Source: Schmidtea nova (lineage: Eukaryota). Taken from it: a stretch of DNA of 64,000 nucleotides. The DNA is taken from positions 317,254,001-317,318,000 of the forward strand of contig CM097882.1 of assembly GCA_044892505.1 (NCBI GenBank). Direction: 5' to 3'. The position numbers and the translations under genes are program-made. This document shows, in pieces, positions 14,525 to 48,344 of this stretch. Within the stretch, counting starts at the first letter, position 1; every line of letters begins with the position of its first letter. The notes under the pieces are model-generated. The model was not told the DNA's origin. It did not search any database and was given only the letters and a program-made list of their open reading frames with translations.

Positions 14525-14860
14525 ATGTAATAATAATAATAATACTAATACTAATAATAATATCATAATTATCTTTTTTCACCTTTGATCTTTTATTATT
14601 ATTATTATCAATAATTCTCATAATGACTATAGATCAAATTTTTTTTTATAAACAATAACACAATATTTCGGCACAGCCTTTATCAAGTGTGTATTTCTTG
14701 ATAAAGGCTGTGCCGAAATATTGTGTTATTGTTTATAAAAAAAAATTTGATCTATAGTCATTATGAGAATTATTGATAATAATAATAATAAAAGATCAAA
14801 GGTGAAAAAAGATAATTATGATATTATTATTAGTATTAGTATTATTATTATTATTATTAT
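14525..14860. repeat. Palindromic PLE-derived element (head-to-head pLTR ends) in an (ATT)n tract
   Basis: Near-perfect inverted arms of ~160 bp centred near 14692 (..ggcacagcctttatcaag tgtgtattt cttgataaaggctgtgcc..). Confidence 0.8.
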
Positions 14861-18941: not shown

Positions 18942-19560
18942 AGTAGATAGTTATGAGGAGCATGACTCATCGAAATTACGTCATAATTACGTAATATTTC
19001 GTGACCCCCCCTCCCCCGATTTTTTTTTGATGGCGTAATCGATGACGTATTTTAAAATTCAAATTTAAAATTTAAATTTCCAAAGGTCAAATAAGGTCAA
19101 ACCTTCAAACAAGGGTATCATTCGAAAGGTCTTGGAGAGGTCTATCCAATGGTCATACCCTCGAAGGTTTATTGGAGGGTCATTGACCTTCAAAGGGTCA
19201 AAAACCTTCAACTTTTTTCAAACCTTATAATATACATATCAAACAAAAGGTAATTGAGAGGTAAGTATGATGGTCATACTTTCAAAGGTGTATGGAGTGT
19301 CCTGAACCTTGAAAGGGTCAAAAACCTTCAACCTTTTTAATTCTTATAATATGTACATCAAACAAAAGGTAATTGAAGGGTGAGTATAATGGTCATACTA
19401 TCTACTAACTAACTAATTTTTTGTACAGAGATAACTTGTGTGTGTGTGTTTAAGAAAAATTACTGTACTCATTGAACGCGCGTGAAACGCGCGTTCTTCT
19501 TCCTTGTTGTATAAGACAAATCACAGTACGCATTGAACTTGCGTGAAACGCGCGTTCTTC
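18942..19560 (+). repeat. Left TIR of Polinton
   Basis: Reverse complement of 34642-35134 plus one extra ~120-bp internal unit. Contains GAACGCGCGT-GAA-ACGCGCGTTC hairpins. Confidence 0.9.
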
Positions 19561-19577
19561 TTCCCTTGTTGTTTAAG

Positions 19578-19660
<83 letters not shown>

Positions 19661-19662
19661 TA
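19578..19662. repeat. (TAA)n microsatellite
   Basis: Pure trinucleotide run that produces spurious poly-Ile ORFs. Confidence 0.95.
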
Positions 19663-20481
19663 TTATTATCAATAATTCTCATAATGACTATAGATCAAAA
19701 TTTTTTTTTTATAAACAATAACACAATATTTCGGCACAGCCTTTATCAAGTGTGTATTTCTATCGTTATATTTACTTAATCCTAAATAGTAGCCTTAATT
19801 ATTTTTTTAATATTTTATAATGATTTTATTGGATGAAAAAATTTATTTTTTTTTAATTTTTTTGTGCGAATTGAATGTTGATGGACGGTTTGTATTTTTT
19901 TATGAAAAAAGTCTCGGAAGCTAATCTTTGTAATGAATTTTTGAATCCCTCTTGTAGGATCTGGCATTTTGTTTCTTCTATAGATGGAGTTGTTTTATGT
20001 ACTTTTTCCCAGTGTTCGTAATAATTACTGGTTTTGATTTTAGTATGTAATCTAAAATATACTAAAATAATACTAAATAATACTAAAATCAAAACCAGTA
20101 ATTATTACGAACACTGGGAAAAAGTACATAAAACAACTCCATCTATAGAAGAAACAAAATGCCAGATCCTACAAGAGGGATTCAAAAATTCATTACAAAG
20201 ATTAGCTTCCGAGACTTTTTTCATAAAAAAATACAAACCGTCCATCAACATTCAATTCGCACAAAAAAATTAAAAAAAAATAAATTTTTTCATCCAATAA
20301 AATCATTATAAAATATTAAAAAAATAATTAAGGCTACTATTTAGGATTAAGTAAATATAACGATAGAAATACACACTTGATAAAGGCTGTGCCGAAATAT
20401 TGTGTTATTGTTTATAAAAAAAAAATTTTGATCTATAGTCATTATGAGAATTATTGATAATAATAATAAAAAAAGATCAAA
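19663..20481. mobile_element. Palindromic PLE insertion nested in the Polinton
   Basis: Essentially perfect ~380-bp inverted arms centred near 20063. Each arm encodes the same GIY-YIG C-terminus (..LASETFFIKKYKPSINIQ) followed by a pLTR with a hammerhead-like motif (20373-20405). Confidence 0.85.
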
Positions 20482-20767
20482 NNNNNNNNNNNNNNNNNNN
20501 NNNNNNNNNNNNNNNNNNNNNNNNNNNNNNNNNNNNNNNNNNNNNNNNNNNNNNNNNNNNNNNNNNNNNNNNNNNNNNNNNNNNNNNNNNNNNNNNNNNN
20601 NNNNNNNNNNNNNNNNNNNNNNNNNNNNNNNNNNNNNNNNNNNNNNNNNNNNNNNNNNNNNNNNNNNNNNNNNNNNNNNNNNNNNNNNNNNNNNNNNNNN
20701 NNNNNNNNNNNNNNNNNNNNNGACACAAAATAAAAAAGACATTTTCAAATAACAAAATTTATTAAAA

Positions 20768-21217
20768 TCAAAATCGATGAGATATTCTGGCATTGTTGAT
20801 TCTCCAAATTGGAGTCATAACATCATTCAAATCAAGTTTATACCCTTGAATTGTAATGTTAATATACCAGCTTTCATTATCAATTAATTGAATCTCTTCA
20901 AATGAATCGAAGAATTTGGTTTGCCGATTATTAATGACTATGTTTTCATTGCAACATAATTTCTTATTGATCTGATTCAAAAGTTTATTGAGAGATAATA
21001 CATCTTCTTTCGATATAGTTCCATAAAGATTCGAATATTGAGTCTTACTCAATTTAACAGGATTTGAAAGACTGAAATCTATTTCACTAACCAAAAAATA
21101 CATTTTATGGTCATGATATATTTGAACTGGCTTCAAAATAGCTTTCTTTGATTTAACTGGTTTGTCTGAATCAATTGTATTAGATCCATTATTGCTAAAT
21201 AATTTAGTTCCTAACAT
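20768..21217 (-). CDS. Polinton hypothetical protein (possible OB-fold/ssDNA-binding)
   Basis: Intact ORF from ATG (MLGTKLF..). C-terminal beta-rich YINITIQGYK...PIWRINNARI. Function is a guess. Confidence 0.6.
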   Translation of the reverse strand: MLGTKLFSNNGSNTIDSDKPVKSKKAILKPVQIYHDHKMYFLVSEIDFSLSNPVKLSKTQYSNLYGTISKEDVLSLNKLLNQINKKLCCNENIVINNRQTKFFDSFEEIQLIDNESWYINITIQGYKLDLNDVMTPIWRINNARISHRF

Positions 21218-21450
21218 TTTAAAATAATAATCTTTAATCACTTAAAGCTTATATTTATACTAAAATAACAATCATGTGTGCAACCAATCAAAATACTATG
21301 ATTGAAATACATTCAAACTATAATTCAATTAAACAAAAAAAAAACCTAAATAAAATAACAATAAAAACTAATAACTATTTAAATACTTTAACAATAAAAT
21401 ATAAAAAGAAGATTAAATAAAAATAAATACAATTAAAGAATAACAATTTA

Positions 21451-21811
21451 TTAAATAACATCTTGGGCTCTATGCCACCTTTCTAACTGATAAAGCAGCT
21501 CTTCTTTATCTTTTAAGAGCCTCCAGTTTGGGCAACATTTGCAATGAATGCAGCAAATGGGCTCCAACTTTATCGCAGGCTCTTTCATATTCCTTTTATG
21601 TTCCCCGATCACCTCTTTCAGGTTCATGCCGGAGAACATCCATACCTTGAAGGGAATGAACTCTGGAGCCCAAAACATCATTTCCTTCATTTCTTCAGGG
21701 TATAATCTTGCCATTGTTTGCAATGCTATTTGCATTAGTGATTCTAAAATAATTAAATTAAAAATTAATTAAAATAAAACAAATAGGCTTACCGTCCAAG
21801 GAGCTAGACAT
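21451..21811 (-). CDS. Polinton Cys-rich hypothetical protein, two exons (21793-21811, 21451-21743)
   Basis: ATG TCT AGC TCC TTG GAC G|gtaagc..49 bp..ttttag|AA TCA CTA ATG joins in frame. CCIHCKCC motif. TATA- and CCAAT-like boxes upstream. Confidence 0.7.
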
Positions 21812-21918
21812 GTTTTTTCATTTTTAACTGAATAAGTGTTTCGTATATATACAAAATTTTGAAACACACTACACCCAATCAGAAACATACACACTCATTA
21901 CGTATACATGACAAATAC

Positions 21919-22389
21919 TTAGGTAATACTTAGCAAAAAGTTTAGGAAATCTTCCTCCTCATTCATCGATTTTATTTCGTTAATAATTTGTTCAACCAAT
22001 TCATGATAATCCAAGGTTTTAATACCAAGTATTACTACTTTGCCACTTGCAAAAACGTTTACACATAATGGATTAAATTTAGAATATCTCAAAGCTGGAA
22101 ATATTTCTGGTTCATAAACACAATTAGTTTTCTTCAATAATAAATTTAAATTAACACGGGATCCTATATCTGCAGTTACTGTAATTGATTGAATTTGAAT
22201 ATCTTCAATTGGATATTGTAAATCTTCAATTTTTAAAGGTTTTTTGCACCCCATTATTCGACATTTACCTGATTTGAAAAATAAAATCGGATACTTTCCA
22301 CTTCTATCGACAATTTGTTGTGGTTTCTCCATTGGAAATTTCATGTGCGAAACTGAGCATTTACCTTTATAATTTATGTTGGTCAGCAT
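21919..22389 (-). CDS. TATA-box-binding protein (TBP)-like protein
   Basis: Two TBP repeats: LTNINYKG..ILFFKSGKCRIMGCK and IQIQSITVTADIG..VNL..L..YEPEIFPALRY....VNVFASGKVVILGIK, cf. canonical YEPELFPGLIYR..LIFVSGKVVLTGAK. Confidence 0.88.
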   Translation of the reverse strand: MLTNINYKGKCSVSHMKFPMEKPQQIVDRSGKYPILFFKSGKCRIMGCKKPLKIEDLQYPIEDIQIQSITVTADIGSRVNLNLLLKKTNCVYEPEIFPALRYSKFNPLCVNVFASGKVVILGIKTLDYHELVEQIINEIKSMNEEEDFLNFLLSIT

Positions 22390-22481
22390 TTATGATGTAA
22401 TAAAATTTAAATATTTTTTATTCGTGTAAAACAATTAATTAAAACAAATATAAACAATAATAATTTCTTTAATATAATAAA

Positions 22482-23105
22482 ATGAAATTGAGAAACGACG
22501 CAGTATATCAAATTGTTGGTCCAAGTGGAAGTGGGAAAACATTGTTTGTTTGTAAATTATTACAATCAAATATGTTTAAATCAAAATTTAATAAAATATA
22601 TTGGCACCGGGGAGCTGATGATGAACATGGTTTGACACAAGACCAATTTTGTAAGATAAAAATGACAACAATTAAAGGATTTGATAAAAACTGGTCATCT
22701 AGATTACGACAAGGTGATGTTATTATTATTGATGATTTGTATCAAGAAGCTAATAAAGAAAAGGACTTTAATAATTTATTCACGAAAATAGCTAGACATA
22801 AAGGAGTTACAGTTATTTTTATTACTCAGAATTTATTTCATCAAGGTGGAGCTCATCGAACTCGTAATTTAAATGTTCAATATCTAGTTGTTTTTAAAAA
22901 TCCCAGAGATTCAACAGTTATTGATTTTCTTGCAAGACAAGCTTACCCTAATAATCGTAGTTTTTTAATTGATGCATTTCAAGATGCAACTCAAATTCCA
23001 CATGGGTATATTTTTCTGGATTTCACACAACAATGTCCTAATGAATTACGAGTTAGTACCGATATTTTCAATAAAGAAGGTGCAATGATTTATAAACAAA
23101 GTTGA
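22482..23105 (+). CDS. A32/FtsK-like DNA packaging ATPase
   Basis: Walker A GPSGSGKT, Walker B IIIDD, ARH..VTVIFITQNLF, R.RNLN. Confidence 0.95.
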   Translation: MKLRNDAVYQIVGPSGSGKTLFVCKLLQSNMFKSKFNKIYWHRGADDEHGLTQDQFCKIKMTTIKGFDKNWSSRLRQGDVIIIDDLYQEANKEKDFNNLFTKIARHKGVTVIFITQNLFHQGGAHRTRNLNVQYLVVFKNPRDSTVIDFLARQAYPNNRSFLIDAFQDATQIPHGYIFLDFTQQCPNELRVSTDIFNKEGAMIYKQS

Positions 23106-23125
23106 AATAATAAATTACATCAATA

Positions 23126-23662
23126 ATGTTTTTAAAATCACGCACAAAGATATTAAAGTCGCCTAAAATTAAAAAAGTTTTTAAAAAGAAACGTCAAACT
23201 AAAGTACCACCAAAGACTAGTTACACGTCACCGAAGAAACTTATTATTGAAAATATTCCTGCAAAGAATCTTATTTCACATAATCTGAAACCAAAAGAAT
23301 CTTTAGAAAAAATTGAAAATGAAATAAAAACATCAAATCATCGTAGTTTCCCATTTTTCAATGCATTACTTAAGGCACCTAGTATTAAAAGAATTAGTAA
23401 TTTACAATCGTTTCCAAATTATGTTATTGATGATTTACTTGATGTTATAGTTAAAATCGTCAAAGGTAAAATTAATATAAGTAAATCAAATAAAAAAGTT
23501 CTAAACAAACACAAGAAACCATTGTTATCACTTGTAAATACTAAAAGTCGGAAACAAATGCGCAAAATCATATATAAACAACAAGGAGGATTTATTGCTG
23601 CATTATTACCATTAGCATTATCTTTGTTAGGAGGAGTTGGTTTATTAGGACAACAAACATAA
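23126..23662 (+). CDS. Basic core protein with adenovirus pX-like C-terminus
   Basis: Lys-rich; ends QQGG|FIAALLPLALSLLGG, similar to the adenoviral pX tail (GG-cleavage site plus hydrophobic helix). Confidence 0.7.
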   Translation: MFLKSRTKILKSPKIKKVFKKKRQTKVPPKTSYTSPKKLIIENIPAKNLISHNLKPKESLEKIENEIKTSNHRSFPFFNALLKAPSIKRISNLQSFPNYVIDDLLDVIVKIVKGKINISKSNKKVLNKHKKPLLSLVNTKSRKQMRKIIYKQQGGFIAALLPLALSLLGGVGLLGQQT

Positions 23663-23665
23663 ACA

Positions 23666-23899
23666 ATGGGACAAACTCCTTTGAGTCATTTAGCTAATCT
23701 TACATTGAATTTTAAATCTACTTGTTGTAATGGAGAAGATATGGACAAATCCAAAAGACCCGGCAGGCTTTGGTGGGGTAGAAAAGCTAAACAAAAAAGT
23801 AATCAAATCGAAAAAAGAGACGCAAAATTGGTTATCCGGACAACTGGCATACAGTCTAAACAAACCAATGTTGAAACGATTTCCAACAAGAGCATATAA
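23666..23899 (+). CDS. Small putative lipidated protein overlapping the integrase 5' end
   Basis: MG start (N-myristoylation-type) plus KSTCC; ATG directly after the previous stop; +1 frame overlap with integrase. Confidence 0.45.
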   Translation: MGQTPLSHLANLTLNFKSTCCNGEDMDKSKRPGRLWWGRKAKQKSNQIEKRDAKLVIRTTGIQSKQTNVETISNKSI

Positions 23900-24796
23900 A
23901 ACATATGGTATTAATGATTTGTGGCAAATGGATTTGATGGAAATGATTCCTTATTCGAAAATCAATAAGGGTTTCAAATATATATTAACTTGTATTGATA
24001 TTTTTAGTCGATATGCACGCGCGGTTCCAACCAAAACAAAATCTGCTAATGAAATGGCAGTGGCAATCAAAACATTGTTTGCTGATGGGCAGCCGAAAAA
24101 CTTACAAACTGATTTAGGTAAGAAAATTAATTAATTTAATTTAATTTAATTTTTAATTTAGGTAAAGAATTTTACAATAGCAAAGTTAAAGAAATTTTAA
24201 AGGGAATAAATCATTACTCGGTATTTTCACAATTCAAAGCAGCGCATGTTGAAAGATTTAATCGTACATTAAGAGATCGTTTGAAAAAGTATTTTGTACA
24301 TCAAGGGAATAAAACATGGATTAATGTATTGCCAAAAATAATACATAGTTATAATCATTCGTCACATAATGGTATAAATGGATTGAGACCTGTTGATGTT
24401 TCAATAAAAAATACAGCAAAGATTTTATTATCTCGCAAAGAAAAATCGAAAATGAAAAAACCTAAATATAAAGTTGGTGATCATGTTCGAATTAGCAAGA
24501 TTAGCGCTTCACCATTCATCAAAGATTTTGATAGTAATTGGAGTGATGAGGTATTTCAGATCTCAAAAATTAATACTAGCCAAGACCCTGTCATGTATGT
24601 TATTTCTGACTCTGAAAATAATGTAGTTAGTGGTAAATTTTACGAGTAAGAATTGCAAGTTATTCCCCCACTAACAGTATTTAGAATTGAAAAAATTTTA
24701 AAAACTAAAATAGTGGGTAAAGATAAACAATATTATGTCAAATGGCATGGATATCAAAACCCATCATGGATATCAGCCAAAGATCTAGTAAAATGA
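23730..24796 (+). pseudogene. RVE integrase with C-terminal chromodomain; 44-bp intron (24118-24161); premature TAA at 24647-24649
   Basis: WQMDL..CIDIFSRY..QTDL-G|KEF..VERFNRTL is restored by splicing. After the stop the frame continues ELQ..FRIEKIL..YYVKWHGY..PSWI (chromodomain). Confidence 0.9.
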
Positions 24797-25788
24797 ACTT
24801 TTATATGATTTTACCAAGTAATAGTTGTCCATTAATTCATCCAGATAATCAAGCCAGTAAATTCATGATCAATTTACAAAATCCAATTTATTTACGTGGT
24901 AATTGGGAAGTTGCATTGCAAGATTTCACATTTGTATATAACAAATTTCCTTATTACAGCCAATGCAAAATTTACTACACGACAGTGACAACTGAAACTG
25001 TAAATGACTACTTTAAAGTTCAAACTAATTATGAAGATACTCAATATTTGAATGATAAAGTTGAATTACATCTAGATAAAATATATTTACATATAAATTG
25101 TGATATAACACCATTTTATTTTAAGTTTGAAAATATAGAAGATGCGAATAAATTTGGGTTTAATGAATTAAAAATCATTAGCAACAATTCAACTTATAAA
25201 ATGCTTATTCCTTCTGATTATTCATCAGAGAAAATGCATATATCAATAAGTTATGATTTAGAAACAGATTTACTTTATGAATTCCAAGACGAAATATACA
25301 TGACAAAAGTTGAAGATTTATATAATTATTTGACATTTTTCTGTTCTCATATATTTAAAGGTGTTGAAATTATTGACAATGTATTCAAATTTAAACTGAA
25401 AGATGAAGTTAAAGAAGTTATATTTGATCAAAAACTAATCAATACACTTGGATTAAAATATGAAAAATATCAAGATAGAGAAGTTAAAGGAATTCGCAAA
25501 GCCAAATTATTTAATCATCATCAACAAATGTTTATTTACAGTAACATTATTGAACCAATTATTGTCGGTGATTCTCTAGTTCCTCTACTGAAATCTGTAT
25601 GGATCGACAAATATGAACAGGATGAAGTTGTACAAATAGTAATGGATAATCCAATGTATTTACCTATTTCTACCTCATGTATAAACAATATAGAAATAAA
25701 TATCCGTGACGATAGTGGTAAATTAATAAATTTTCCAAAAGATTCAAAAACACATTTGACATTACATTTTCGTAAATTAAATGATTAA
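24793..25788 (+). CDS. Minor capsid (penton) protein
   Basis: MNFYMILPSNS..F...L..PI.L.G.WEVAL; C-terminal FIYSNIIEP..VGD...PLL..Y.P.....I..IEINIRD..G..I.F....LHF. The ATG overlaps the integrase TGA (ATGA). Confidence 0.9.
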   Translation: MNFYMILPSNSCPLIHPDNQASKFMINLQNPIYLRGNWEVALQDFTFVYNKFPYYSQCKIYYTTVTTETVNDYFKVQTNYEDTQYLNDKVELHLDKIYLHINCDITPFYFKFENIEDANKFGFNELKIISNNSTYKMLIPSDYSSEKMHISISYDLETDLLYEFQDEIYMTKVEDLYNYLTFFCSHIFKGVEIIDNVFKFKLKDEVKEVIFDQKLINTLGLKYEKYQDREVKGIRKAKLFNHHQQMFIYSNIIEPIIVGDSLVPLLKSVWIDKYEQDEVVQIVMDNPMYLPISTSCINNIEINIRDDSGKLINFPKDSKTHLTLHFRKLND

Positions 25789-26173
25789 TCCAGATATAAT
25801 TTCATTGTATAGTAATAGCCAAACTGGTGGTGAATTACCTTATTTTGCTGGTAAACAGTATGGATCAGGTTGGTTAAAAACTATAAGGCGATTTGCACTC
25901 CCAATTCTAAAGAGAATCGGTAGTTTTGGTTTAAAAACTGCCAAAGATGTCATCATGAATGATCAGAAAATATTACCATCATTGAAAACAAATGCTTTGT
26001 CTGCAATTGGTAAAGTCTTGCCTACAGTGAGTAGTATGATTCCTAATGTTGCAAGTATGTTTAATAATGATGAACCTGAACCTGAACCTGAACAAGTGGG
26101 GCCTAGACGTAAAAAACATCGAAGGTATATAAACAATCGAATGAAAGGACATGGAACTATATTTGCAAAATGA
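25781..26173 (+). CDS. Polinton virion protein with amphipathic (pVI/cupiennin-like) helix
   Basis: QTGG.LPYF.G.QYGSG followed by amphipathic WLKTIRRFALPILKRIG; basic C-terminus PRRKKHRR. Confidence 0.75.
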   Translation: MINPDIISLYSNSQTGGELPYFAGKQYGSGWLKTIRRFALPILKRIGSFGLKTAKDVIMNDQKILPSLKTNALSAIGKVLPTVSSMIPNVASMFNNDEPEPEPEQVGPRRKKHRRYINNRMKGHGTIFAK

Positions 26174-27396
26174 TTTGTGGTAAATCTGAATTATGTCTTT
26201 TTGACCGACCATCACCTCAAGCAGTTATTGAATATGGTGCATTTGAAGAAGTATTTCCCATGAATTCTATTACAGACGGTAGAAATGATGTGGAATTTTA
26301 TGTTAACGGATCTCAATCTGAATATTTGGATTTGAATGATACTTTACTAACTGTTCAAGTAAAAGTAGTAAATGCCGATAAAAAAGATTTGTCTGCAACT
26401 GTTGATGTTATACCAAACAATTTCATGTTTCATACTCTATTCAAGGACGCAATTCTTGGTTTTAATAATATCAAAATTGAAGGTGGAAACAATACATATG
26501 CACACAAGGCAATAATCGAAACTATTTTAAATTATAATAGTGATACTAAAGAAACTTGTCTTACTCCAATGGGATATGGAGAATCTGATGAGAGAAAAGC
26601 GTGGATCAAAGGCTCAAAGCTATTCACAATGTGTTCATCTCTACAACTGGATTTCATGGATCAACCGAAATATTTATTACCAGGTGTCAATATTCACATC
26701 AGATTGAAGCGATCAGATTCTGCATTATCACTATATTCTAAAAGTGGAGCACCAAAATGTCAATTAGTTGATGCAAAATTAATGATTCGTCGTGTTCGTG
26801 TTGAACCATCTGTATTAGCTGGACACCAAGTTGGACTTAACTCAAAACACGCCATTTATCCAATGAAAACCAAAGAAATAGTACAATTCGCCATTGGTAA
26901 AGGTGCATCATCTTTCTACAAAGAACAAATATTCGGCGATCGAAGAATGCCTAATTTCATTCTGGTCACATTTCAAAGTGAAACTCAATACAATGGATCA
27001 TATAATACATCTAGTTCGAAATTCAAACATTTCAATGTAACTTCCTTATCTCTATCGAAAAACACTGATTATAGAGAAACATACACTCAAGATTTTGAAA
27101 ATGATAATTATTGTACTACATATATGCAGTCGATGGTCAGAAATATGGGATATTTAGATATAAATTTGAATTTGAATTGTGGTATAACACTTGCCGATTT
27201 TAAAAACAAATACCCTTTCTTTACATTTGTTTTGGCTCCGGATTTCGATTTAAATCAAAGTCAATTACCACAAAATGGAAATTTGAGATTGGATATAAAG
27301 TTTTCTAAAGCTATTGAAGAACCAGTACAGGTAATAATATATGGAGTATTTGAAAATGAAATTCAAATTACTGCTAATCGAACAGTATTGGTTTGA
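26170..27396 (+). CDS. Major capsid protein (double jelly-roll)
   Basis: KSEL.LF..P..Q..IE.G....V.P, EF...G....YLDL, Q.KYLLPGV...I.L.R, P..ILV, G.LRL...F: typical Polinton MCP motifs. Confidence 0.93.
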   Translation: MICGKSELCLFDRPSPQAVIEYGAFEEVFPMNSITDGRNDVEFYVNGSQSEYLDLNDTLLTVQVKVVNADKKDLSATVDVIPNNFMFHTLFKDAILGFNNIKIEGGNNTYAHKAIIETILNYNSDTKETCLTPMGYGESDERKAWIKGSKLFTMCSSLQLDFMDQPKYLLPGVNIHIRLKRSDSALSLYSKSGAPKCQLVDAKLMIRRVRVEPSVLAGHQVGLNSKHAIYPMKTKEIVQFAIGKGASSFYKEQIFGDRRMPNFILVTFQSETQYNGSYNTSSSKFKHFNVTSLSLSKNTDYRETYTQDFENDNYCTTYMQSMVRNMGYLDINLNLNCGITLADFKNKYPFFTFVLAPDFDLNQSQLPQNGNLRLDIKFSKAIEEPVQVIIYGVFENEIQITANRTVLV

Positions 27397-27472
27397 GCAG
27401 AGCTCAAACATTATTGGTTTGAGCAGAGCTCAGACATTACTGGTTTGAGCAGAGCTCAGACATTACTGGTTT
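27389..27472 (+). repeat. 26-bp tandem repeat x3.2 with internal hairpin
   Basis: TGGTTTGAGCAGAGCTCA(A/G)ACATTA(T/C); the first unit contains the MCP stop codon. Confidence 0.9.
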
Positions 27473-27515
27473 AAACTATCATTATAAATGTGCAATTCAA
27501 AGTTAACAATTTGTC

Positions 27516-27915
27516 ATGGAGTAAGTTTTTATTATTTATTAAATAAATCTATTTAAATAGTTCTATTCAGATTAATCGAATTGGAAAACAATTATTGGGA
27601 AATGAATTTATTGGAGTATATCCACTAGACAAAATACCTTATTTAGATGACAATCAAGCCATAGTCGTCAATACACAATCATCTACTCTTGGTGGAGAAC
27701 ATTGGATAGCTGTAAATGTAAAACCGATCAAGATATATGCATTCGATCCATTCGGATGTTACTATCCAGGTTTATTAGTTAGTAAACTGCAAACATTAGG
27801 AAAACCTATTGAATATAATCGAATTTGATATCAAGATCCATTAACAATTACTTGTGGTCAACATTGCCTTGCATGGCTTAATTCAATGTTAAAAAGTATA
27901 AACAATGTAGTTTAA
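27516..27915 (+). pseudogene. Adenain-type cysteine protease; 40-bp intron (27521-27560); premature TGA at 27826-27828
   Basis: ATG GA|gtaag..aatag|T gives MDSIQIN..FIGVYP.D..IVVNT....GEHW..YAFDPFG; after the stop YQDPLTITCGQHC (catalytic Cys). Confidence 0.88.
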
Positions 27916-27934
27916 TAAATGTTTTTAGAAAAAA

Positions 27935-28369
27935 ATGACTTGTTATTTTATTGATATTTACGGTTATAATGATAATTGTGGTGGGAAAATTATTAAAGAA
28001 TTATGAATTAAGAATGTTAATAATATTTTTCGACCAAAATATTGGATATATAATGATGTTCCTTTTTGGGCTGAAATTGGTGAACCTGACAGATTAGAAT
28101 GGTATGAAGGGGAAGACCACTTTTGTCCAACATGTATTTTGAAAGAAATTGAAGATGTTGATGCGATTTGCTATGTGACTGATCAAGATAAACTTACTGT
28201 TTTAAAAAGATATTTTCCGTCCCTAAGATTAATTAAGTATAATATTAAGGAAGTTGAAACTTTTCCTGACAATATTTCATGCCCATATCGAGATCATACA
28301 AATTGTGCATATAAAGGGTGTTTGGTGGGGGCTTTAGATTATTTAAAAATTAATAATATGCTTAATTAA
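27935..28369 (+). pseudogene. Polinton accessory protein, degenerate DEDD-nuclease-like; premature TGA at 28004-28006
   Basis: MTCYFIDIYG...IIKEL*...LEWYEG...CPYRDHTNCA, all in one frame from ATG 27935. Confidence 0.55.
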
Positions 28370-28677
28370 TTTGAAATAAAAAATTTGCAATTGAAATGCA
28401 TAATCTCTGCGGTCATCGTGCATGAGTAATCATGTGTGTATTAATGGAAATTATAATGAGTTAGCTTGTATGTATAACATATGTGTATGATAATACACAC
28501 ACAGCTGGTAAATCCATGTTGTATGTATGCGAGCGACTCTTTTCTTCTCATAAACGATTTTCATTGGTTCAATTAATATTATGCAATATATCTTATATAA
28601 AGATATGTTTTCAATATTTTAGTCACTTTTTACCATAACCCAAAATTTCTTATTCATCATATAATCAATTATTATAT

Positions 28678-28958
28678 ATGTACAACAATATTAATAATGT
28701 TAAAAATACCAATATCAATGGATTGAATGGTAAGGATTTATTTATTTTTATTTTATTATTTTTAAACGTAATTTATTATAGGAATGTCAAGAATTAATAT
28801 GCGAAATGTTACAAATGTATCCGGAAACAATAACAATAATGTTTCTTTTAGAAACGGTAAAATTTTATTTGTATATTTATTATTTTATTTAATGTTTTAT
28901 AGAACTTTTTAATGCCCCAAATGAATCCACGACGAATTTTAATTTTAATAACAATTAA
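28678..28958 (+). CDS. Putative three-exon Asn-rich micro-gene (28678-28729, 28782-28856, 28903-28958)
   Basis: Two GT-AG introns (52 and 46 bp) join in frame. Upstream ATTGG, TATATAA (~28594) and Inr-like TAGT (~28620). Confidence 0.5.
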
Positions 28959-30043
28959 AAGTGTATCCGCGATGAATTTTAATAAGGATTCAAATACTGG
29001 ACATTTTTTAAATAATGCATCGATAAATTCCGTGATGAATGGTAGAACAAAATGTAAGATTTTTAAATTTTTATAATGTTTTATAATGTTTTATAATGTT
29101 TTTATAATATTTTACTATTAATATTTTCCCTTAATTAAATAGTATTCTCAATTAACTATGAATATATTCAATAATAATATTAGTTTTTAATAATAATAAT
29201 AATATTAGTTTTTAATAATAATAATAATATTAGTTTTTAATAATAATATTAGTTTTTAATATTAGTTTTTTAATAATAATAATAATATTAGTTTTTAATA
29301 ATAATAATAATCATAATAATATTAATAATGATAATAATTTGATAAAGATAAACTATTTTAATACAACATATTGTATATTAATTTGATAATGATAGATTAT
29401 TTTAATATAACTCATGGTATAATAATAATAATTATAATCTTAAGATAAAAATTATTTTAATAACAACTTTAACATACCATATGATAAATAACCTTTAAAT
29501 TTTAACATATTTCGTAATAGGTTTATCTTCTTAAACTATTATGTAATATGTCAAAATTTGATTAGCAACTGTCAGACTTTATACAATATCTATTAATTTT
29601 AACCTATTACATAATAGTTTTGTCTTCATAAACTATTAAGTAATATGTTAAACTTAGATTATTATTAATATATTTATTATAATATTATTGATTTAATTTT
29701 TATGATGAAAAAACAATTATGAAATAAATATTTAAAAAAATATTAAGACATTATTATGTAGATTTTTTATTTAAAAATATTAATGATATATATTTTATAT
29801 TTAAATTTGTTATGTAGGTTATAAATATCCGACTTTTTGCAATAGTATTTGCCATAACGACTGTGACGTCATTATGGAAAAATACTATCGTTATAAATAT
29901 AATTGTATAACTTACCTGTTATGCCCCGTATGCCAAAATCTTGAAACATCGACATATACTGACTTCTATGATAAACACCATATTCATTTAACTCAATATA
30001 TGCCTTCTAAAAAACCATTTTTAATACAGCTTACTCAAAAGCT

Positions 30044-33000
30044 TTGACTACAACAACAACTAACATTGAAACCAATCATGAAACCAATAGGCAAATTGAC
30101 AACAATAATAACAATACTACAATGAATGAGATTTTATTACAAAACCAACAATTGATAGAGTCAATCAATAAGTTAATAAATGTAATAGGTAGTAAAAGAC
30201 AATCAGATTTTTCAACTGATATTCCCACAAAAAAGATTAAAATAGACGAAATCATAACAATAAGTGACGACGACGACGAGTTTCTTGTAGATAATGAGGT
30301 TCTTGTAGATAATGAGGTTCTTGTAGATAATGAGGTTCTTGAAGATAACGACGTTCTTGTAGATAACGACGTTCTTGTAGATAACGAGGTTCTTGTAGAT
30401 AACGAGGTTCTTGTAGATAACGAGGTTCTTGTAGATAACGAGGTTGTAAATATTAGTGATGATGATGATGAGATTGTAAATATTAGTGATGACGAGATTC
30501 TTAGCGAGGTAGTACCCCAAATTCTTAATTGTTTTTCGGTTCAAGTAGGCTGTGGCGTAGTTGATATAGTTTCAGACTTGAATAACTCCCATGTTATAGT
30601 GAAGCTTGATGTGTCGTCTTTGAATTGTCAAACTCTTTCTGTTCCTGACGTTCTCCTTGATAAATTATTTGAAACTGTAAGTAAAATGAAATCGGTGAAA
30701 ATACAATTTTGTATTAAAGTAGAGTTTGAGAAAGATGATGAACTTCAATCTTTCGTCATCTCAAACTCTGCTCGTGTTTGGAGCGAATCTTTCATTGACG
30801 AGGGTATCTCTCTTTTAAACGAGAAAATAAGTAAAATAAATGAAAAGGGGAGTAATTTGACCATCAGAAAAATTGAATATATTAGTTTTATAGTCACAAA
30901 ATACTCTGAGATAAGTAGACTGAGTGGTCGCAAATATATTCAAACCCCCAGAACGTTAATCAGGAAAAATTGTCTAGTTAATGTAAATAACGACGATCAA
31001 TTTTGTTTTCTTTATTCGATCTTGGCCCTTATAAAATATAGCAGCACTCCCGATGAATTACGTCATCTGTCTTCATCCTATAATCTTTCCCAACTTGTAT
31101 ATGACCCGGCTGATATGCCAATGAAATTATCAAATATTTCCAAATTTGAAAGACAAAACCCAGGATATGCCATTAATGTCTTAAGTTACGACGAGAATGC
31201 CTTGAGTAATATAAGTAATAATGACACTATAATGAAACATCCCTTCATAGATATTATTTATCGTAGTAAGGTGGTAGGAGGTACTTGTTTAAATTTATTA
31301 TTATTGGAGAATCGAAAAACCTATCATTATGTCGCTATATCTAACCTAAATATATTTCTAAATTGTCGAAACTCATCAATAAGTTCAGTTCGTATTCAAT
31401 GTAAGTGGTGTCCTAGGTGTCTTAATGGATTTAGACGTGACGATAGTTTTAATAGACATATAGGTCTTTGTGATAAAAACCAATTAGGAACCACAATGTA
31501 TACTCTACCCGATAACTCTTTATTGGAATTTAGTGATTATAGAAAAACCATCACTCCTCCTTTTGTCATTTATGCCGATTTTGAGGCAATACTCCCAAAA
31601 GATGAAAGATATTATCAAAAACACTTACCCATTTCTGCTGGGCTTTTGTGTATCAACAATTATACGGGAGAAAAATTTTATAATTCTTTTATAGGGCTTT
31701 CTTGTGTAGATCAGTTTTTACGTCAAATTGAGCATATATCAAAAAAGATTGTAAGTCCCTACTACCATAAAAATTTTGACAAGAAAATTATTTTTACCGA
31801 CGATGACGCTATTAATTACAGTAACAGCACAAACTGTCATTTGTGTAATAAATTATTAGATACCCCTGTTAGAGACCATAATCACTTCACTGGTAAATTC
31901 ATTGGTGCTGCTTGTAGAAAATGTAATTTATCCAGACAAATACGACACACACTACCTGTAGTCTTTCATAATTTGAAAGGGTATGATCTTCATCATATCA
32001 TCAAATTCGGTTTGTCAAATTATAAGTCCTGGAATTTAAGTTGCATTCCGCTAACAAGTGAGAAGTTTTTAACCCTAACCGCCTATATAGATTCTTTGAC
32101 AGTTAAATTCATCGATAGTTGCCAATTTGTAAATTCTTCATTGAAAAAGGCTGTGTCAAACTTGAATTCTTTACCCTTGACGGAATCTGAGTTTAGAGGC
32201 ACTATCATAAATAGTAAAGGAATATTCCCTTATGATATAGCGACATCCCTTGATGTATTAAGATCAACATTAGAATTACCCCCAAAATGGAGTGATGTGT
32301 CCCAAGATGAGTATGATAAGGCCAAATTGATATGGCAAGAGACATCGTGTAATTCCCTTTTGGATTATATGATGGTCTACCTCAAGTTAGATGTTTTCCT
32401 GTTGGCTGACTTTTTTCAGCAATTCCGGGCTAAGAGTATTGCCCATAATAAACTTGAACCCCTTAATTTTCTTGGTATCCCCAGTCTTTCTTGGAGTTCT
32501 GCTTTGTTAAGTCTTGATAAACCTATTGTACTTCTCACCGACATGGAGATGTACAATTTCTTTGAGGGTGGGATTAGAGGTGGGATAACTTTTGTGAATA
32601 AGCATTTTGTTCGTAGTGATGAAAATACAGAGTTGTTGTACATTGACATAAACAACCTGTATGGATGGGCTTTGAGTCAAAAACTTCCCGATGGTGATTT
32701 TGAGTGGGTGACTGACGATACGACTTTAGAGAGATTATTAATTGAATGTACAACGGTAGATTTAAGTCTGCTTGATTATGGTTACACAGTCGAAGTGGAT
32801 TTACAAATACCACCATCGATTCAGGATAAGCTTGATGATTTTCCGGTAGCTCCTGAAAAGATGTGTCCACCTTTTTCTAAAGTGGAGAAGTTGCTACTTA
32901 CACATTACCCGAAAACAAACTACGTTCTCCATTGGCGACTTCTCCAAATCTTTCTTCAGTTAGGTGTTGTTGTCACAAAGGTACATAGGGCTATTAGGTA

Positions 33001-33988
33001 CACACAAAGCACAGTATTCAAAAAATATATAGACACAAACACCCAATTACGAGCATCGTCCACAACTCCGCTCGATAGAGATTATTACAAGTTACTCAAC
33101 AACAGTTTGTATGGAAAAACTGTTGAGAACTTGAAAAAACGTATGAACTTACGCCTGTGCAATTCAGCGCAAAAACTTATCACATATACCTCAAAATCGG
33201 TATTTAGGAAATCTACCAGGATAGACAGTGATTTGATTTCGGTTTTGTTTAGGAAAGAATCTATATGTTTAGATAGACCCAGCTACATTGGTCAATCAGT
33301 ACTGGATCTGTCTAAACTGAGAATGTATCAGTTACAGTATAACGACTTGCAAAAATATCGCGAGGAGTTTAACTGTCAAATTAATATAGTCGCAGGTGAT
33401 ACAGACTCTTTCTTCTTGGAGATTAAACATTGTAGTCTTGACATTCTCTTACCTGCCATGATCCGTGACTCCTTGCTTGACACATCTAACTATGACCCAC
33501 AACATGCCCTATATAGTAGAGCCCTGGATTCCGTTATAGGAAAATTCAAAGATGAGAATAAAGGGCAGAAATATAAGGAGTGGGTGTTTCTTCGTCCCAA
33601 ATGTTACAGTTTGTTAGGTGACAAAGAAACTATCAAGGCTAAGTCTGTCACATTAAAAGATAGTGGCTTAAACCATAACTCTTATCGCGATTGTTTCTTT
33701 AACAATAAGGTTTACTCTGTTCCACAATTCCGAATTACTTCCAAAAACCATCAATTGTACAGCATTAGAAACAATAAGAGGGCGCTGACAAATAGGGATG
33801 ATAAGCGGTATTGGTGTTCCAAAAACAATAGTTTGGCATATGGGCATCATCGGGTGGGGGATACTTTTATATATAACGATGATGATGATGATGAAAATAA
33901 TCGATTCCTGGACAATAACCCATTTGATGAAAACGATCAGGGTACCAGCATTCAGAATTACAATTACAGAATTCTGCATCCGCAATAG
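30044..33988 (+). CDS. polB: Protein-primed B-family DNA polymerase (pPolB) with vOTU-like and endonuclease VII domains
   Basis: ExoI YADFE, FHNLKGYD, YIDINNLYG, KLLNNSLYGK, GDTDS, LRPKCY. EndoVII CHLC..VRDHNH.TG...GAAC..CNL. vOTU-like NDDQFCFLYS...HY. First in-frame ATG at 30122. Confidence 0.96.
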   Translation: MTTTTTNIETNHETNRQIDNNNNNTTMNEILLQNQQLIESINKLINVIGSKRQSDFSTDIPTKKIKIDEIITISDDDDEFLVDNEVLVDNEVLVDNEVLEDNDVLVDNDVLVDNEVLVDNEVLVDNEVLVDNEVVNISDDDDEIVNISDDEILSEVVPQILNCFSVQVGCGVVDIVSDLNNSHVIVKLDVSSLNCQTLSVPDVLLDKLFETVSKMKSVKIQFCIKVEFEKDDELQSFVISNSARVWSESFIDEGISLLNEKISKINEKGSNLTIRKIEYISFIVTKYSEISRLSGRKYIQTPRTLIRKNCLVNVNNDDQFCFLYSILALIKYSSTPDELRHLSSSYNLSQLVYDPADMPMKLSNISKFERQNPGYAINVLSYDENALSNISNNDTIMKHPFIDIIYRSKVVGGTCLNLLLLENRKTYHYVAISNLNIFLNCRNSSISSVRIQCKWCPRCLNGFRRDDSFNRHIGLCDKNQLGTTMYTLPDNSLLEFSDYRKTITPPFVIYADFEAILPKDERYYQKHLPISAGLLCINNYTGEKFYNSFIGLSCVDQFLRQIEHISKKIVSPYYHKNFDKKIIFTDDDAINYSNSTNCHLCNKLLDTPVRDHNHFTGKFIGAACRKCNLSRQIRHTLPVVFHNLKGYDLHHIIKFGLSNYKSWNLSCIPLTSEKFLTLTAYIDSLTVKFIDSCQFVNSSLKKAVSNLNSLPLTESEFRGTIINSKGIFPYDIATSLDVLRSTLELPPKWSDVSQDEYDKAKLIWQETSCNSLLDYMMVYLKLDVFLLADFFQQFRAKSIAHNKLEPLNFLGIPSLSWSSALLSLDKPIVLLTDMEMYNFFEGGIRGGITFVNKHFVRSDENTELLYIDINNLYGWALSQKLPDGDFEWVTDDTTLERLLIECTTVDLSLLDYGYTVEVDLQIPPSIQDKLDDFPVAPEKMCPPFSKVEKLLLTHYPKTNYVLHWRLLQIFLQLGVVVTKVHRAIRYTQSTVFKKYIDTNTQLRASSTTPLDRDYYKLLNNSLYGKTVENLKKRMNLRLCNSAQKLITYTSKSVFRKSTRIDSDLISVLFRKESICLDRPSYIGQSVLDLSKLRMYQLQYNDLQKYREEFNCQINIVAGDTDSFFLEIKHCSLDILLPAMIRDSLLDTSNYDPQHALYSRALDSVIGKFKDENKGQKYKEWVFLRPKCYSLLGDKETIKAKSVTLKDSGLNHNSYRDCFFNNKVYSVPQFRITSKNHQLYSIRNNKRALTNRDDKRYWCSKNNSLAYGHHRVGDTFIYNDDDDDENNRFLDNNPFDENDQGTSIQNYNYRILHPQ
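30277..30445 (+). repeat. 18-bp coding tandem repeat (VLVDNE)n in the pPolB N-terminus
   Basis: About 9 units of GTTCTTGTAGATAA(C/T)GA(G/C). Confidence 0.9.
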
Positions 33989-34641
33989 GTAAATTTTTAT
34001 TATTATTTTTATTATTATTATTATTATTATTAATTGTAGTTTTAACAATCTTGTCAGAACATCAAATAATTATAACTTGGCAGCCAGTTTCTGAAATTTA
34101 CGAACTCGATATTCCATTTGGGTTTAAACTCTGTGATATTAGAAATATAATTTTTATTTTCAAATTGATTTTTTAATTTTGTTGTAAACTTTTTGGCAGA
34201 ANNNNNNNNNNNNNNNNNNNNNNNNNNNNNNNNNNNNNNNNNNNNNNNNNNNNNNNNNNNNNNNNNNNNNNNNNNNNNNNNNNNNNNNNNNNNNNNNNNN
34301 NNNNNNNNNNNNNNNNNNNNNNNNNNNNNNNNNNNNNNNNNNNNNNNNNNNNNNNNNNNNNNNNNNNNNNNNNNNNNNNNNNNNNNNNNNNNNNNNNNNN
34401 NNNNNNNNNNNNNNNNNNNNNNNNNNNNNNNNNNNNNNNNNNNNNNNNNNNNNNNNNNNNNNNNNNNNNNNNNNNNNNNNNNNNNNNNNNNNNNNNNNNN
34501 NNNNNNNNNNNNNNNNNNNNNNNNNNNNNNNNNNNNNNNNNNNNNNNNNNNNNNNNNNNNNNNNNNNNNNNNNNNNNNNNNNNNNNNNNNNNNNNNNNNN
34601 NNNNNNNNNNNNNNNNNNNNNNNNNNNNNNNNNNNNNNNNN

Positions 34642-35134
34642 AGAACGCGCGTTTCACGCGCGTTCAATGCGTACTGTGATTTGTCTTATACAACAAGGAA
34701 GAAGAACGCGCGTTTCACGCGCGTTCAATGAGTACAGTAATTTTTCTTAAACACACACACACACACACAAGTTATCTCTGTACAAAAAATTAGTTAGTTA
34801 GTAGATAGTATGACCATTATACTCACCCTTCAATTACCTTTTGTTTGATGTACATATTATAAGAATTAAAAAAGGTTGAAGGTTTTTGACCCTTTCAAGG
34901 TTCAGGACACTCCATAAACCTTCGAGTGTATGACCTTTGGATAGACCTCTCCAAGACCTTTCGAATGATACCATTGTTTGAAGGTTTGACCTTATTTGAC
35001 CTTTGGAAATTTGAATTTTAAATTTGAATTTTAAATTACGTCATCGATTACGCCATTAAAAAAATCGGGGGTCACGAAATATTACGTAATTATGACGTAA
35101 TTTCGATAAGTCATGCTCCTCATAACTATCTACT
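34642..35134 (-). repeat. Right TIR of Polinton (inner part lies in an assembly gap)
   Basis: Reverse complement of the left TIR. Confidence 0.9.
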
Positions 35135-46961: not shown

Positions 46962-48344
46962 TTACGTCAACCATTCTTTTCTATCCGCTTTCTCATTCCT
47001 TTCCATTTCTATGTATAGGGTGTCTGCATATAATCGTTCCCATAGGCTTTCTTTCGTTATAAACATTGGTTCTCCCGCTGCTAATCCACATTCTGTGGTT
47101 GGTTTCTCGCTCGTACTCGCATGTTTCTCTGTCTCAAAGAATTTTTCTACTGGTTTTGTTACACTTCTGATTCTTACAATGACTCCTACTTTCAAGGGCC
47201 ATTCTACTAGGTCGTCGTATTCTCCTTTACATAGCGAGAAAAATATTGACACATGTGTTCCTCGTCCTCTTCCGTCTCCATTTGGGTATAGCTTCAATCT
47301 CACTTTAGCTCCGTTTCTCCATAAATAAAATGGTGGGCTTATTACTGCTGTTTTCGTCATATTTCTGGCCTCTGTTAATTTGTTTCTAAAATCTGTCACT
47401 TTCCACACATATGGTGCGATTGGTAACTTTTCCTCGGTATCCTGGGTGAGTTTGTTGTACTGGATTTTCATTCCTTTAGCCAATTCTTCGATAGCTTTTA
47501 TCTTTTCCTCCATCTTTTCTCGTGTTAGTTCGAATTGCTCTCTGGTTTCCAACAGTAGGTTTACCATTATCTTGTGTGACTCTATTTCTCTTTCTAATTT
47601 TTTGATTGTTTGTTCGGTTTCTTTTGTTGCTTCGTTTGTCATTTCCGCATGCTTTAGCAATGCTTCCTCCAGATGTTGTTTCATGGTTTTTTGCGTTCTT
47701 TTCTCCATACATCCCTGTTTGTTATAAGGGCATTCCCTTGGTTTCTCCGTGCACATTTTCCAATGTTCTTGTAATTTTACTTCTGCCGTTATCTCGCATT
47801 CGTTTGAACATATTCCTACATATTGTCTACATACTTTCTCCTCTTTTACATTCAGGTGTTCTTCTTCGATCTTTCTCCTCGTTTCTCGAGTTCCACAATA
47901 TTCGCATAGACTTTCCTCTTCTTTACATTCATCTTTGTGCTGCTCTTTATTCTTTATAGTTATTTTTTGTTGGCATTTGTTACATTCGGTTCTCTTCTCC
48001 TCGCAGTTCTCCAGATGGTTCTCGAGATCGCGTATTTGTCCTTGCCATATACATGGTTGATTTATACATTCGGTTTTCGTGTTCATGATTTCTCTCTGAG
48101 TTGCTCTATCTGGTCCGGTTTCTTCGAATTTTATTTGTCCTTCTTTGCATTCTGGACATTCTGGTGGTCTTTTCATACTTAACTCGTGTATGCATTTGGT
48201 ACATACTCTGCATCCGCATAGGGTTTGTCTTGGTTTCAATATTATGTTTTTACAATTTACACAAGTGAGTCTCTGACTCCATTTCCTGTTCTCGGCTCTC
48301 AAAATTTCGATTATCCGCTCTTCGGCTTTTCCTTCTGTATTCAT
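46962..48344 (-). CDS. TRAF: TNF-receptor-associated factor (TRAF)-like protein, intronless
   Basis: RING (C..C..IL.KPRQTLCGCRVC..C...CPEC), TRAF zinc fingers (C.N..C.W.G....LE.HL..C; CPY...GC), coiled coil, MATH (YVWKV.DF..SPPFY...G.K..L.LYPNGDG.G.GTHVS.F....GEYD..LEWP). Confidence 0.93.
   Translation of the reverse strand: MNTEGKAEERIIEILRAENRKWSQRLTCVNCKNIILKPRQTLCGCRVCTKCIHELSMKRPPECPECKEGQIKFEETGPDRATQREIMNTKTECINQPCIWQGQIRDLENHLENCEEKRTECNKCQQKITIKNKEQHKDECKEEESLCEYCGTRETRRKIEEEHLNVKEEKVCRQYVGICSNECEITAEVKLQEHWKMCTEKPRECPYNKQGCMEKRTQKTMKQHLEEALLKHAEMTNEATKETEQTIKKLEREIESHKIMVNLLLETREQFELTREKMEEKIKAIEELAKGMKIQYNKLTQDTEEKLPIAPYVWKVTDFRNKLTEARNMTKTAVISPPFYLWRNGAKVRLKLYPNGDGRGRGTHVSIFFSLCKGEYDDLVEWPLKVGVIVRIRSVTKPVEKFFETEKHASTSEKPTTECGLAAGEPMFITKESLWERLYADTLYIEMERNEKADRKEWLT

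Follow-up and report, generated by a model that had tools for sequence, protein, structure and literature searches.

One clade of animal Polinton/Maverick elements carries a gene for a TATA-binding protein (TBP) homologue of about 150 aa, and in the elements that bear it an oriented box stands before most packaging and capsid-type genes. The protein keeps the TBP saddle and the stirrup that contacts TFIIB, and much of its DNA face has been replaced by other, near-invariant residues. We consider it probable, at roughly 60%, that this is an early viral TBP that would read the box and recruit host TFIIB and RNA polymerase II (Pol II) to late particle genes, a role predicted from sequence and modeled structure.

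The element and its TBP-like gene

The window, by which we mean the whole 64,000-nt stretch of DNA analyzed, contains a Polinton/Maverick element with terminal inverted repeats (TIRs) of about 620 bp (90-96% identity), AG-rich ends, and flanks (GCCCAA/GCTCAA) alike in 5 of 6 bases. Both ends and perfect 6-bp target duplications were recovered for six of eight sibling copies fetched, and one end only for the other two. A protein-primed family B DNA polymerase (pPolB), an integrase, an A32 ATPase, a protease, and a double jelly-roll capsid protein were all identified, the capsid and protease via relatives. The window copy carries in-frame stops in the 3' part of the integrase, in the protease, and in the DEDD-like gene.

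18942..35134, no strand: Polinton/Maverick element, 16,193 bp (AGTAGA termini, near-perfect 6-bp flanks, TIRs, core genes)
18942..19558, plus strand: left TIR (90-96% identity to the right arm)
20768-21217, minus strand: orf149, an accessory gene that co-occurs with the TBP-like gene in many loci
21919..22389, minus strand: TBP-like gene, 156 aa, a saddle without repeat-1 helices (PF00352; HHalign 99.7%; AlphaFold2 pLDDT 95.7; Foldseek PDB)
22391..22395, minus strand: Inr-like TCATA just before the TBP-like ATG (sequence; family tally)
22415-22422, minus strand: non-consensus AATAAAAA where relatives have a TATA box (sequence; family tally)
22482..23105, plus strand: A32-like packaging ATPase (PF04665, E=9.5e-7)
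23126-23662, plus strand: orf178, a basic protein without family (ORF)
23666-23899, plus strand: conserved 77-aa MG...CC ORF, overlapping the integrase start in another frame
from 23730, plus strand: integrase (rve, PF00665), with a GT-AG intron-like stretch at 24118-24161
24742-25788, plus strand: putative minor capsid gene (by position; without Pfam match)
25781-26173, plus strand: orf130 (ORF)
26170-27396, plus strand: major capsid gene (23% identity to L155, whose clade-mate L151 matches PF21738)
about 27480-27910, plus strand: adenain-like protease gene (family via relative L058, PF00770; in-frame stop in the window copy)
27935-28370, plus strand: DEDD-like gene (without Pfam match; in-frame stop in the window copy)
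30122..33988, plus strand: protein-primed family B DNA polymerase (42-79% to own-genome PolB genes with PF03175)
34642..35134, minus strand: right TIR, visible part, the inner part reading N (repeat comparison with the left arm)

The gene at 24742-25788 is presumed from its position to encode a minor capsid protein, and the DEDD-like label at 27935-28370 follows a sequence motif that we take to be of that kind. We assume that orf149 resembles an ssDNA-binding OB fold; it had no family assignment in Pfam and no usable match in the Atlas. The MG...CC ORF (54-83 aa across relatives) was present in nine of the ten related loci inspected, in most cases preceded by an ATAAAC box of its own, and its start presumably could serve as a myristoylation and palmitoylation motif. 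AT-rich, GT-AG intron-like stretches of 40-49 nt were observed in the integrase (24118-24161), in orf94 (near 21735-21790, minus strand), and in the protease (near 27510-27560, plus strand), and their occurrence in element genes points to nuclear Pol II transcription. The integrase stretch was found in 12/12 own-genome loci checked, and metagenome relatives (L040, L041, L058, L071) have a single integrase frame, an apparent intron gain in the elements of this host.

The window also contains perfect long hairpins beside AAT microsatellites, one within the Polinton directly after the left TIR (19659-20467, 388-bp arms) and one at 14528-14856 (160-bp arms). The minus strand at 48918-63881 encodes, in a single frame, an LTR-retrotransposon polyprotein of 4,987 aa; its domains are a zinc knuckle, a viral fusion glycoprotein domain (PF24664, E=4e-68), protease, RT, RNase H, integrase, and ankyrin repeats. 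A TRAF/MATH gene follows at 46962-48344. Contigs from two runs cover the stretch and have no bearing on expression.

The TBP-like gene is a single open frame, intact and intronless within the TIRs, as the initial annotation had described it; the motifs listed there (YEPEIFPAL, VFASGKVV, FFKSGK) were all found in the ORF, and the spacer to the ATPase ATG at 22482 is 92 bp (22390-22481). The divergent TBP-like/ATPase arrangement reported with them holds in the window. Elsewhere the two genes were in tandem in 12 and opposite in 2 of the 14 metagenome loci holding both (L086, with no tblastn ATPase match, was left out), and a conserved divergent layout was rejected on that count.

The gene recurs throughout the genome. 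The best 150 matches were all 99-100% identical and open, in a match list that favors intact copies and for which 150 is a lower bound; a second subfamily gave at least 150 further matches, and three more were found at 60-75% identity. Between the five subfamilies dN/dS was 0.12-0.29 (one pair saturated), and judged by these ratios the gene is under purifying selection in at least five subfamilies of this genome. It is thus no one-off insertion absent from sibling copies, the outcome that would have spoken against the original reading. Public collections yielded 136 relatives among 167 candidates. Polinton-linked homologues were also found beyond this genome: among 55 metagenome loci with the gene, 25 held a core Polinton gene, 17 more an accessory neighbor, and 13 nothing linked, with 12 of those 13 shorter than 2 kb and 19 of the 20 loci of at least 3 kb linked. 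IMG/VR returned no usable relatives, its matches comprising one canonical-type TBP, three distant ATPases, and no capsid protein.

A TBP saddle with a replaced DNA face

PF00352 matched residues 63-140 (E=2.1e-18; 66.4 bits against a cut-off of 22.9), and profile comparison with HHalign (99.7% over 131 columns) spanned both repeats, in agreement with the proposed TBP homology. AlphaFold2, given a 97-row alignment, returned a TBP saddle (pLDDT 95.7, pTM 0.85) with its ten strands and the two helices of repeat 2, so that the lack of such a fold, the other outcome named in the initial annotation as refuting it, was not observed. Every Foldseek PDB match shown with E<=0.001 (ranks 1-44, with gaps) was a TBP chain, with TM(query) of 0.55-0.71. 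The canonical organization, in which both repeats are complete and contain H1 and H2, was not found, as repeat 1 had no helix of at least four residues in the model.

On the DNA face, I194 and V203 were added as residues that we take to be contacts. The remaining residues are those of the yeast contact list in Table 1 of PMC12529657, mapped via HHalign/HMMER alignments. N69, F116, F190, P191, F207, and V213 (yeast numbering) were kept. Of the intercalating Phe residues claimed for this protein, F38, F97, and F113 are indeed present, but the fourth, at yeast position F99, is Pro in 95 of 97 relatives; N159 of the N69/N159 pair is likewise replaced, by Ser, in 95/97. The other swaps among the 97 relatives were V71>N (94), A101>Q/M (92), V122>R (96), T124>M (97), V161>T/S (97), I194>R (96), V203>C (97), and L205>N (97). 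Those at I194, V203, and L205 fall, we believe, at the positions of the classic engineered TBPm3 mutant. The replacement residues are mostly polar and near-invariant (N6, R44, M46, S68, R101, C109, N111), and in 26 cellular TBPs the standard DNA-face residues were retained in most rows. Such fixed replacement, as opposed to decay, points to a DNA face rebuilt for a new DNA target. The TFIIB-contact stirrup (E186, E188, L189 in yeast) was conserved by sequence, with E93 in 93/97, E95 in 97/97, and L/I96 in 96/97 rows.

A quick tree built from 95 selected rows placed the family across a long branch (SH-aLRT 100) from eukaryotic and archaeal-type TBP/TRF sequences and from four of the host, a separate clade in the comparison with host and cellular TBPs that had been proposed; no donor was identifiable in this tree. 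Host genes include a canonical TBP, one further TBP paralogue, and two divergent TRF-like genes (L089, L090/L091, L092, L093), several paralogues from which a TBP or TRF passenger might recently have been captured. The long-branch split, the purifying selection across at least five subfamilies, and the presence of the gene in distant elements make that origin extremely improbable, and we rejected it.

The short forms were one group (98) among longer forms in the tree. Thirteen longer relatives (P0177, P0181, P0184, P0187, P0189, P0193, P0199, P0208, P0211, P0215, P0219, P0235, P0245) keep repeat-1 helix segments and already carry F99>P, V122>R, T124>M, and L205>N, so that the DNA face seems to have been altered before the helices were lost. 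A long-form protein had no match in GTDB genomes, and when this genome was queried with long forms, the 20 loci read included short-form subfamilies.

An oriented ATAAAC box before particle genes

Alignment of start regions gave the consensus (T/C)ATAAAC(A), and ATAAAC was the top 6-mer in an unbiased scan of 53 distinct 90-nt regions upstream of packaging and capsid-type genes in TBP-bearing elements. These regions come from the window element, L101, and L032-L086, with rows of less than 90 nt upstream or uncertain start dropped (except orf178), and every TBP-bearing locus was retrieved by way of its TBP-like gene. ATAAAC occurred in 45/53, against a mean of 4.9 and a maximum of 14 in 500 mononucleotide shuffles: 14/14 for the ATPase, 8/8 for the major capsid gene, 11/13 for the DEDD-like gene, 8/12 for orf178, and 4/6 for the protease, two of whose genes read ATAAAT at the box. 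All 22 lineages (80% clusters) had it. The box started 31-40 nt upstream of the ATG in 34/45, and 38/45 began with T, that is, TATAAAC; the reverse orientation was seen in 1/53. Because 26 of the 45 boxes lie outside any ORF of at least 90 aa and the rest fall in two different frames of upstream genes, coding constraint is not the only force that maintains them. Tallied apart from the 53, the box was present before the MG...CC-type ORF in 8/9 loci, before minor capsid genes in 3/4, and before orf130 in 1/7 (90-nt window).

In the window, eight copies of ATAAACAA lie on the plus strand from 22450 to 27905, before nearly every gene of the block:

22449..22457, plus strand: TATAAACAA box, 33 nt before the ATPase ATG, inside the 92-bp spacer (14/14 distinct ATPase upstream regions with ATAAAC)
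23091..23099, plus strand: box in the ATPase 3' end, 35 nt before orf178 (motif scan)
23573..23666, plus strand: two boxes (23573, 23659), before the 77-aa MG...CC ORF and the integrase (motif scan)
24723..24730, plus strand: ATAAACAA preceded by G, before the putative minor capsid gene (motif scan)
25680..25688, plus strand: box about 100 nt before orf130 (motif scan)
26128..26136, plus strand: box 42 nt before the major capsid gene (motif scan)
27897..27905, plus strand: box at the protease gene end, 38 nt before the DEDD-like gene (motif scan)

With nearly every gene behind its own box, the capsid operon of the initial annotation was rejected; its suggestion of a minimal viral late-gene factor fits the saddle fold, the clade-wide conservation, and the oriented box before particle genes, and the role is predicted on that basis. 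Across the whole window ATAAACA was counted 29 times against 13.9 expected, and it is common in host repeats.

The TBP-like genes themselves differ. In 44 regions upstream of TBP-like genes, ATAAAC was present in 4 (shuffle 2.9), in contrast to 45/53 for the particle-type genes, so that the non-standard box is common to structural genes and is not a feature of the gene for the factor itself. TATA-type sequences were found before 24/44 TBP-like genes and Inr-like motifs before 38/44 (against 9/53 for particle-type genes), at a TATA-Inr spacing of 30-32 nt in 18/21; the window's own TBP-like gene has the Inr-like motif and no consensus TATA. Reverse-oriented TGTTT[AT]A was also observed before 20/44 TBP-like genes (window 22430-22460; L033, L070, L073-L075), including genes with no divergent gene upstream, and possibly represents self-regulation or a host Forkhead site.

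The control was a distant Polinton clade of the same genome, found via PF04665 (a PF03175 search gave the TBP-bearing clade's own polymerases). Here the box was absent from all 20 upstream regions, in a sample that amounts to one clade of four related and possibly incomplete copies with about six distinct genes. No TBP-like gene was found in about 20 kb around each of the four copies, the single match belonging to the enclosing element. With a single clade as control, the box and the TBP-like gene may simply share ancestry. In this clade (L151:3169 to L152:3917; L153-L158), one copy is nested inside a TBP-bearing element, and several of the clade's genes have a TATAAA-like sequence directly before the ATG.

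Who reads the box has several possible answers. For the adenovirus major late box, the C(-25) variant presumably reads TATAAAC. By its title, the structure 1qn3 shows wild-type plant TBP crystallized on that variant, and the host could therefore read the commonest form of the box, which accounts for 38 of the 45. Host TBP/TFIID might then suffice for these promoters, with the TBP-like protein acting as decoy or repressor, by sequestering TFIIB or by blocking promoters, either as a dominant negative or in self-repression of the element. The loss of F99 and N159, which could weaken DNA bending while the TFIIB stirrup stays, would suit such a role, as would the reverse-oriented TGTTT[AT]A before TBP-like genes. 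Yet a decoy has no need for a new near-invariant DNA face, and if the host read the box, there would be no need for position 7 to be C in 22 lineages when ordinary TATA and Inr motifs serve the TBP-like genes of those elements; moreover, the first T is missing in 7/45. The dominant-negative alternative put forward in the initial annotation accounts for neither the box nor the re-faced DNA surface, and we regard a decoy as unlikely.

Another reader of the box, with the TBP-like protein at work elsewhere, is a decidedly unlikely alternative. ATAAACA fits the Forkhead consensus, so a host Forkhead protein could be a candidate, as could an element gene such as orf149 or the DEDD-like gene, neither of which has been placed in a family and both of which accompany the TBP-like gene at many loci. 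The strict orientation (45 against 1), the fixed TATA-like distance, and the rarity of the strong Forkhead form GTAAAC (2/53) are nevertheless more in keeping with a core promoter element than with an enhancer site. Nor do the set distance before start codons and the gene orientation of the boxes, or the near-invariant TFIIB stirrup, favor a role outside transcription, in which the protein would bind or bend ATAAAC sites for packaging, replication, or chromatin organization. We judge that role very unlikely, even though the TBP-like gene adjoins the packaging ATPase in many elements and boxes are scattered along the virion block.

Proposed mechanism and known systems

In the mechanism that we favor, host TFIID would make the TBP-like protein first, and the protein would then bind the oriented (T/C)ATAAAC(A) box before packaging and capsid-type genes. 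Through its conserved EPE stirrup it is predicted to recruit TFIIB and Pol II of the host. TFIIA, TAF1, Mot1, and Brf1 bind the repeat-1 helix side of TBP, and the protein, having lost H1 and H2 of that repeat, would escape these factors because the missing helices lie on the side they grip. The outcome would be an early-to-late switch that governs the particle genes. With the box this close to the ATG, 5' leaders would span only a few bases, which would count against a late-promoter reading.

The closest parallel is the late-gene system of beta- and gamma-herpesviruses, in which a virus-encoded TBP (KSHV ORF24, EBV BcRF1, HCMV UL87) acts on TATT; as presented in PMC12529657, ORF24 binds late promoters with the TBP Phe residues and a polar face. 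A virus-encoded TBP fold, a polar DNA face, a non-standard TATA-like box before structural genes, and the use of host Pol II are the points of likeness. ORF24, however, has 752 aa and several domains, belongs to a viral complex of multiple proteins, and keeps all four Phe residues, whereas the Polinton protein is a single domain of 156 aa that has lost one Phe and two helices; and while a section heading of PMC12529657 describes the ORF24 model as incompatible with direct TFIIB binding, the Polinton protein keeps the TFIIB stirrup. Pfam families of the herpesvirus late complex were absent from the element ORFs scanned, no partner was found, and BcRF1 was matched by Foldseek only at E=3.7e-3 and 19% identity, which gives no indication that the two are directly related. 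The late transcription proposed here for the Polinton clade, driven by a viral TBP, would resemble the herpesvirus system but is no member of it.

Cellular TBP and TRF proteins (PF00352) share with the Polinton protein the saddle fold, a complete repeat 2, F116/F190/F207, N69, and the EPE stirrup, but the Polinton short forms lack the repeat-1 helices, carry F99>P and nine other DNA-face swaps, and form a separate clade. Nucleocytoviricota also have viral TBP folds, and the best named BFVD match was the TBP of Heterosigma akashiwo virus (E=4.4e-8), yet identity is only 9-19% and cellular TBPs score as well or better. Giant viruses mostly bring their own RNA polymerase; in the Polinton element, by contrast, no RNA polymerase was seen and GT-AG intron-like stretches are present.

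TBP had been said to lie outside the standard Polinton gene set, and the literature searched agrees in part: the Fig. 5 legend of Starrett et al. 2021 (PMC8502044) labels a "TBP" gene in MELD viruses/elements with adintovirus-like PolB. It is a label only, accompanied in the text by neither an analysis nor a promoter box, and the element or family meant is not identifiable from it. Some polintoviruses bear VLTF3 (PMC11131425) and so likewise form a Polinton subgroup with a giant-virus-type late transcription factor, but from another protein family, and the word "promoter" is absent from the main text of that paper. Neither TBP nor TATA occurs in the main texts of PMC10748475, PMC11131425, and PMC11161782. 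No paper analyzing a Polinton TBP or the ATAAAC box was found in the literature searched, Repbase entries and subscription papers lying beyond its scope.

A more far-reaching claim, to which we give slightly less than even odds, is that this animal Polinton clade has the smallest known self-encoded promoter-specificity system: a 150-aa TBP, predicted to have been rebuilt to read ATAAAC and to lack the surfaces by which the cell polices TBP, that would act on virion genes as an orthogonal switch, comparable to a sigma factor, by engaging TFIIB and Pol II of the host. Such a protein would be an altered-specificity TBP of natural origin. It would also have arrived at the herpesvirus late-gene strategy independently and in minimal form, and would be a candidate for an orthogonal Pol II promoter system. 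For the control of particle genes in Polintons, and for whether these elements have a true viral phase, a self-encoded TBP with a matching box offers a direct handle, namely, a named protein and a named 7-bp site. If the proposal is true, the "transposons" of this clade have a late phase that is programmed, and host loci could be activated by the factor as well, given the hundreds of gene copies and how common the box is in host repeats.
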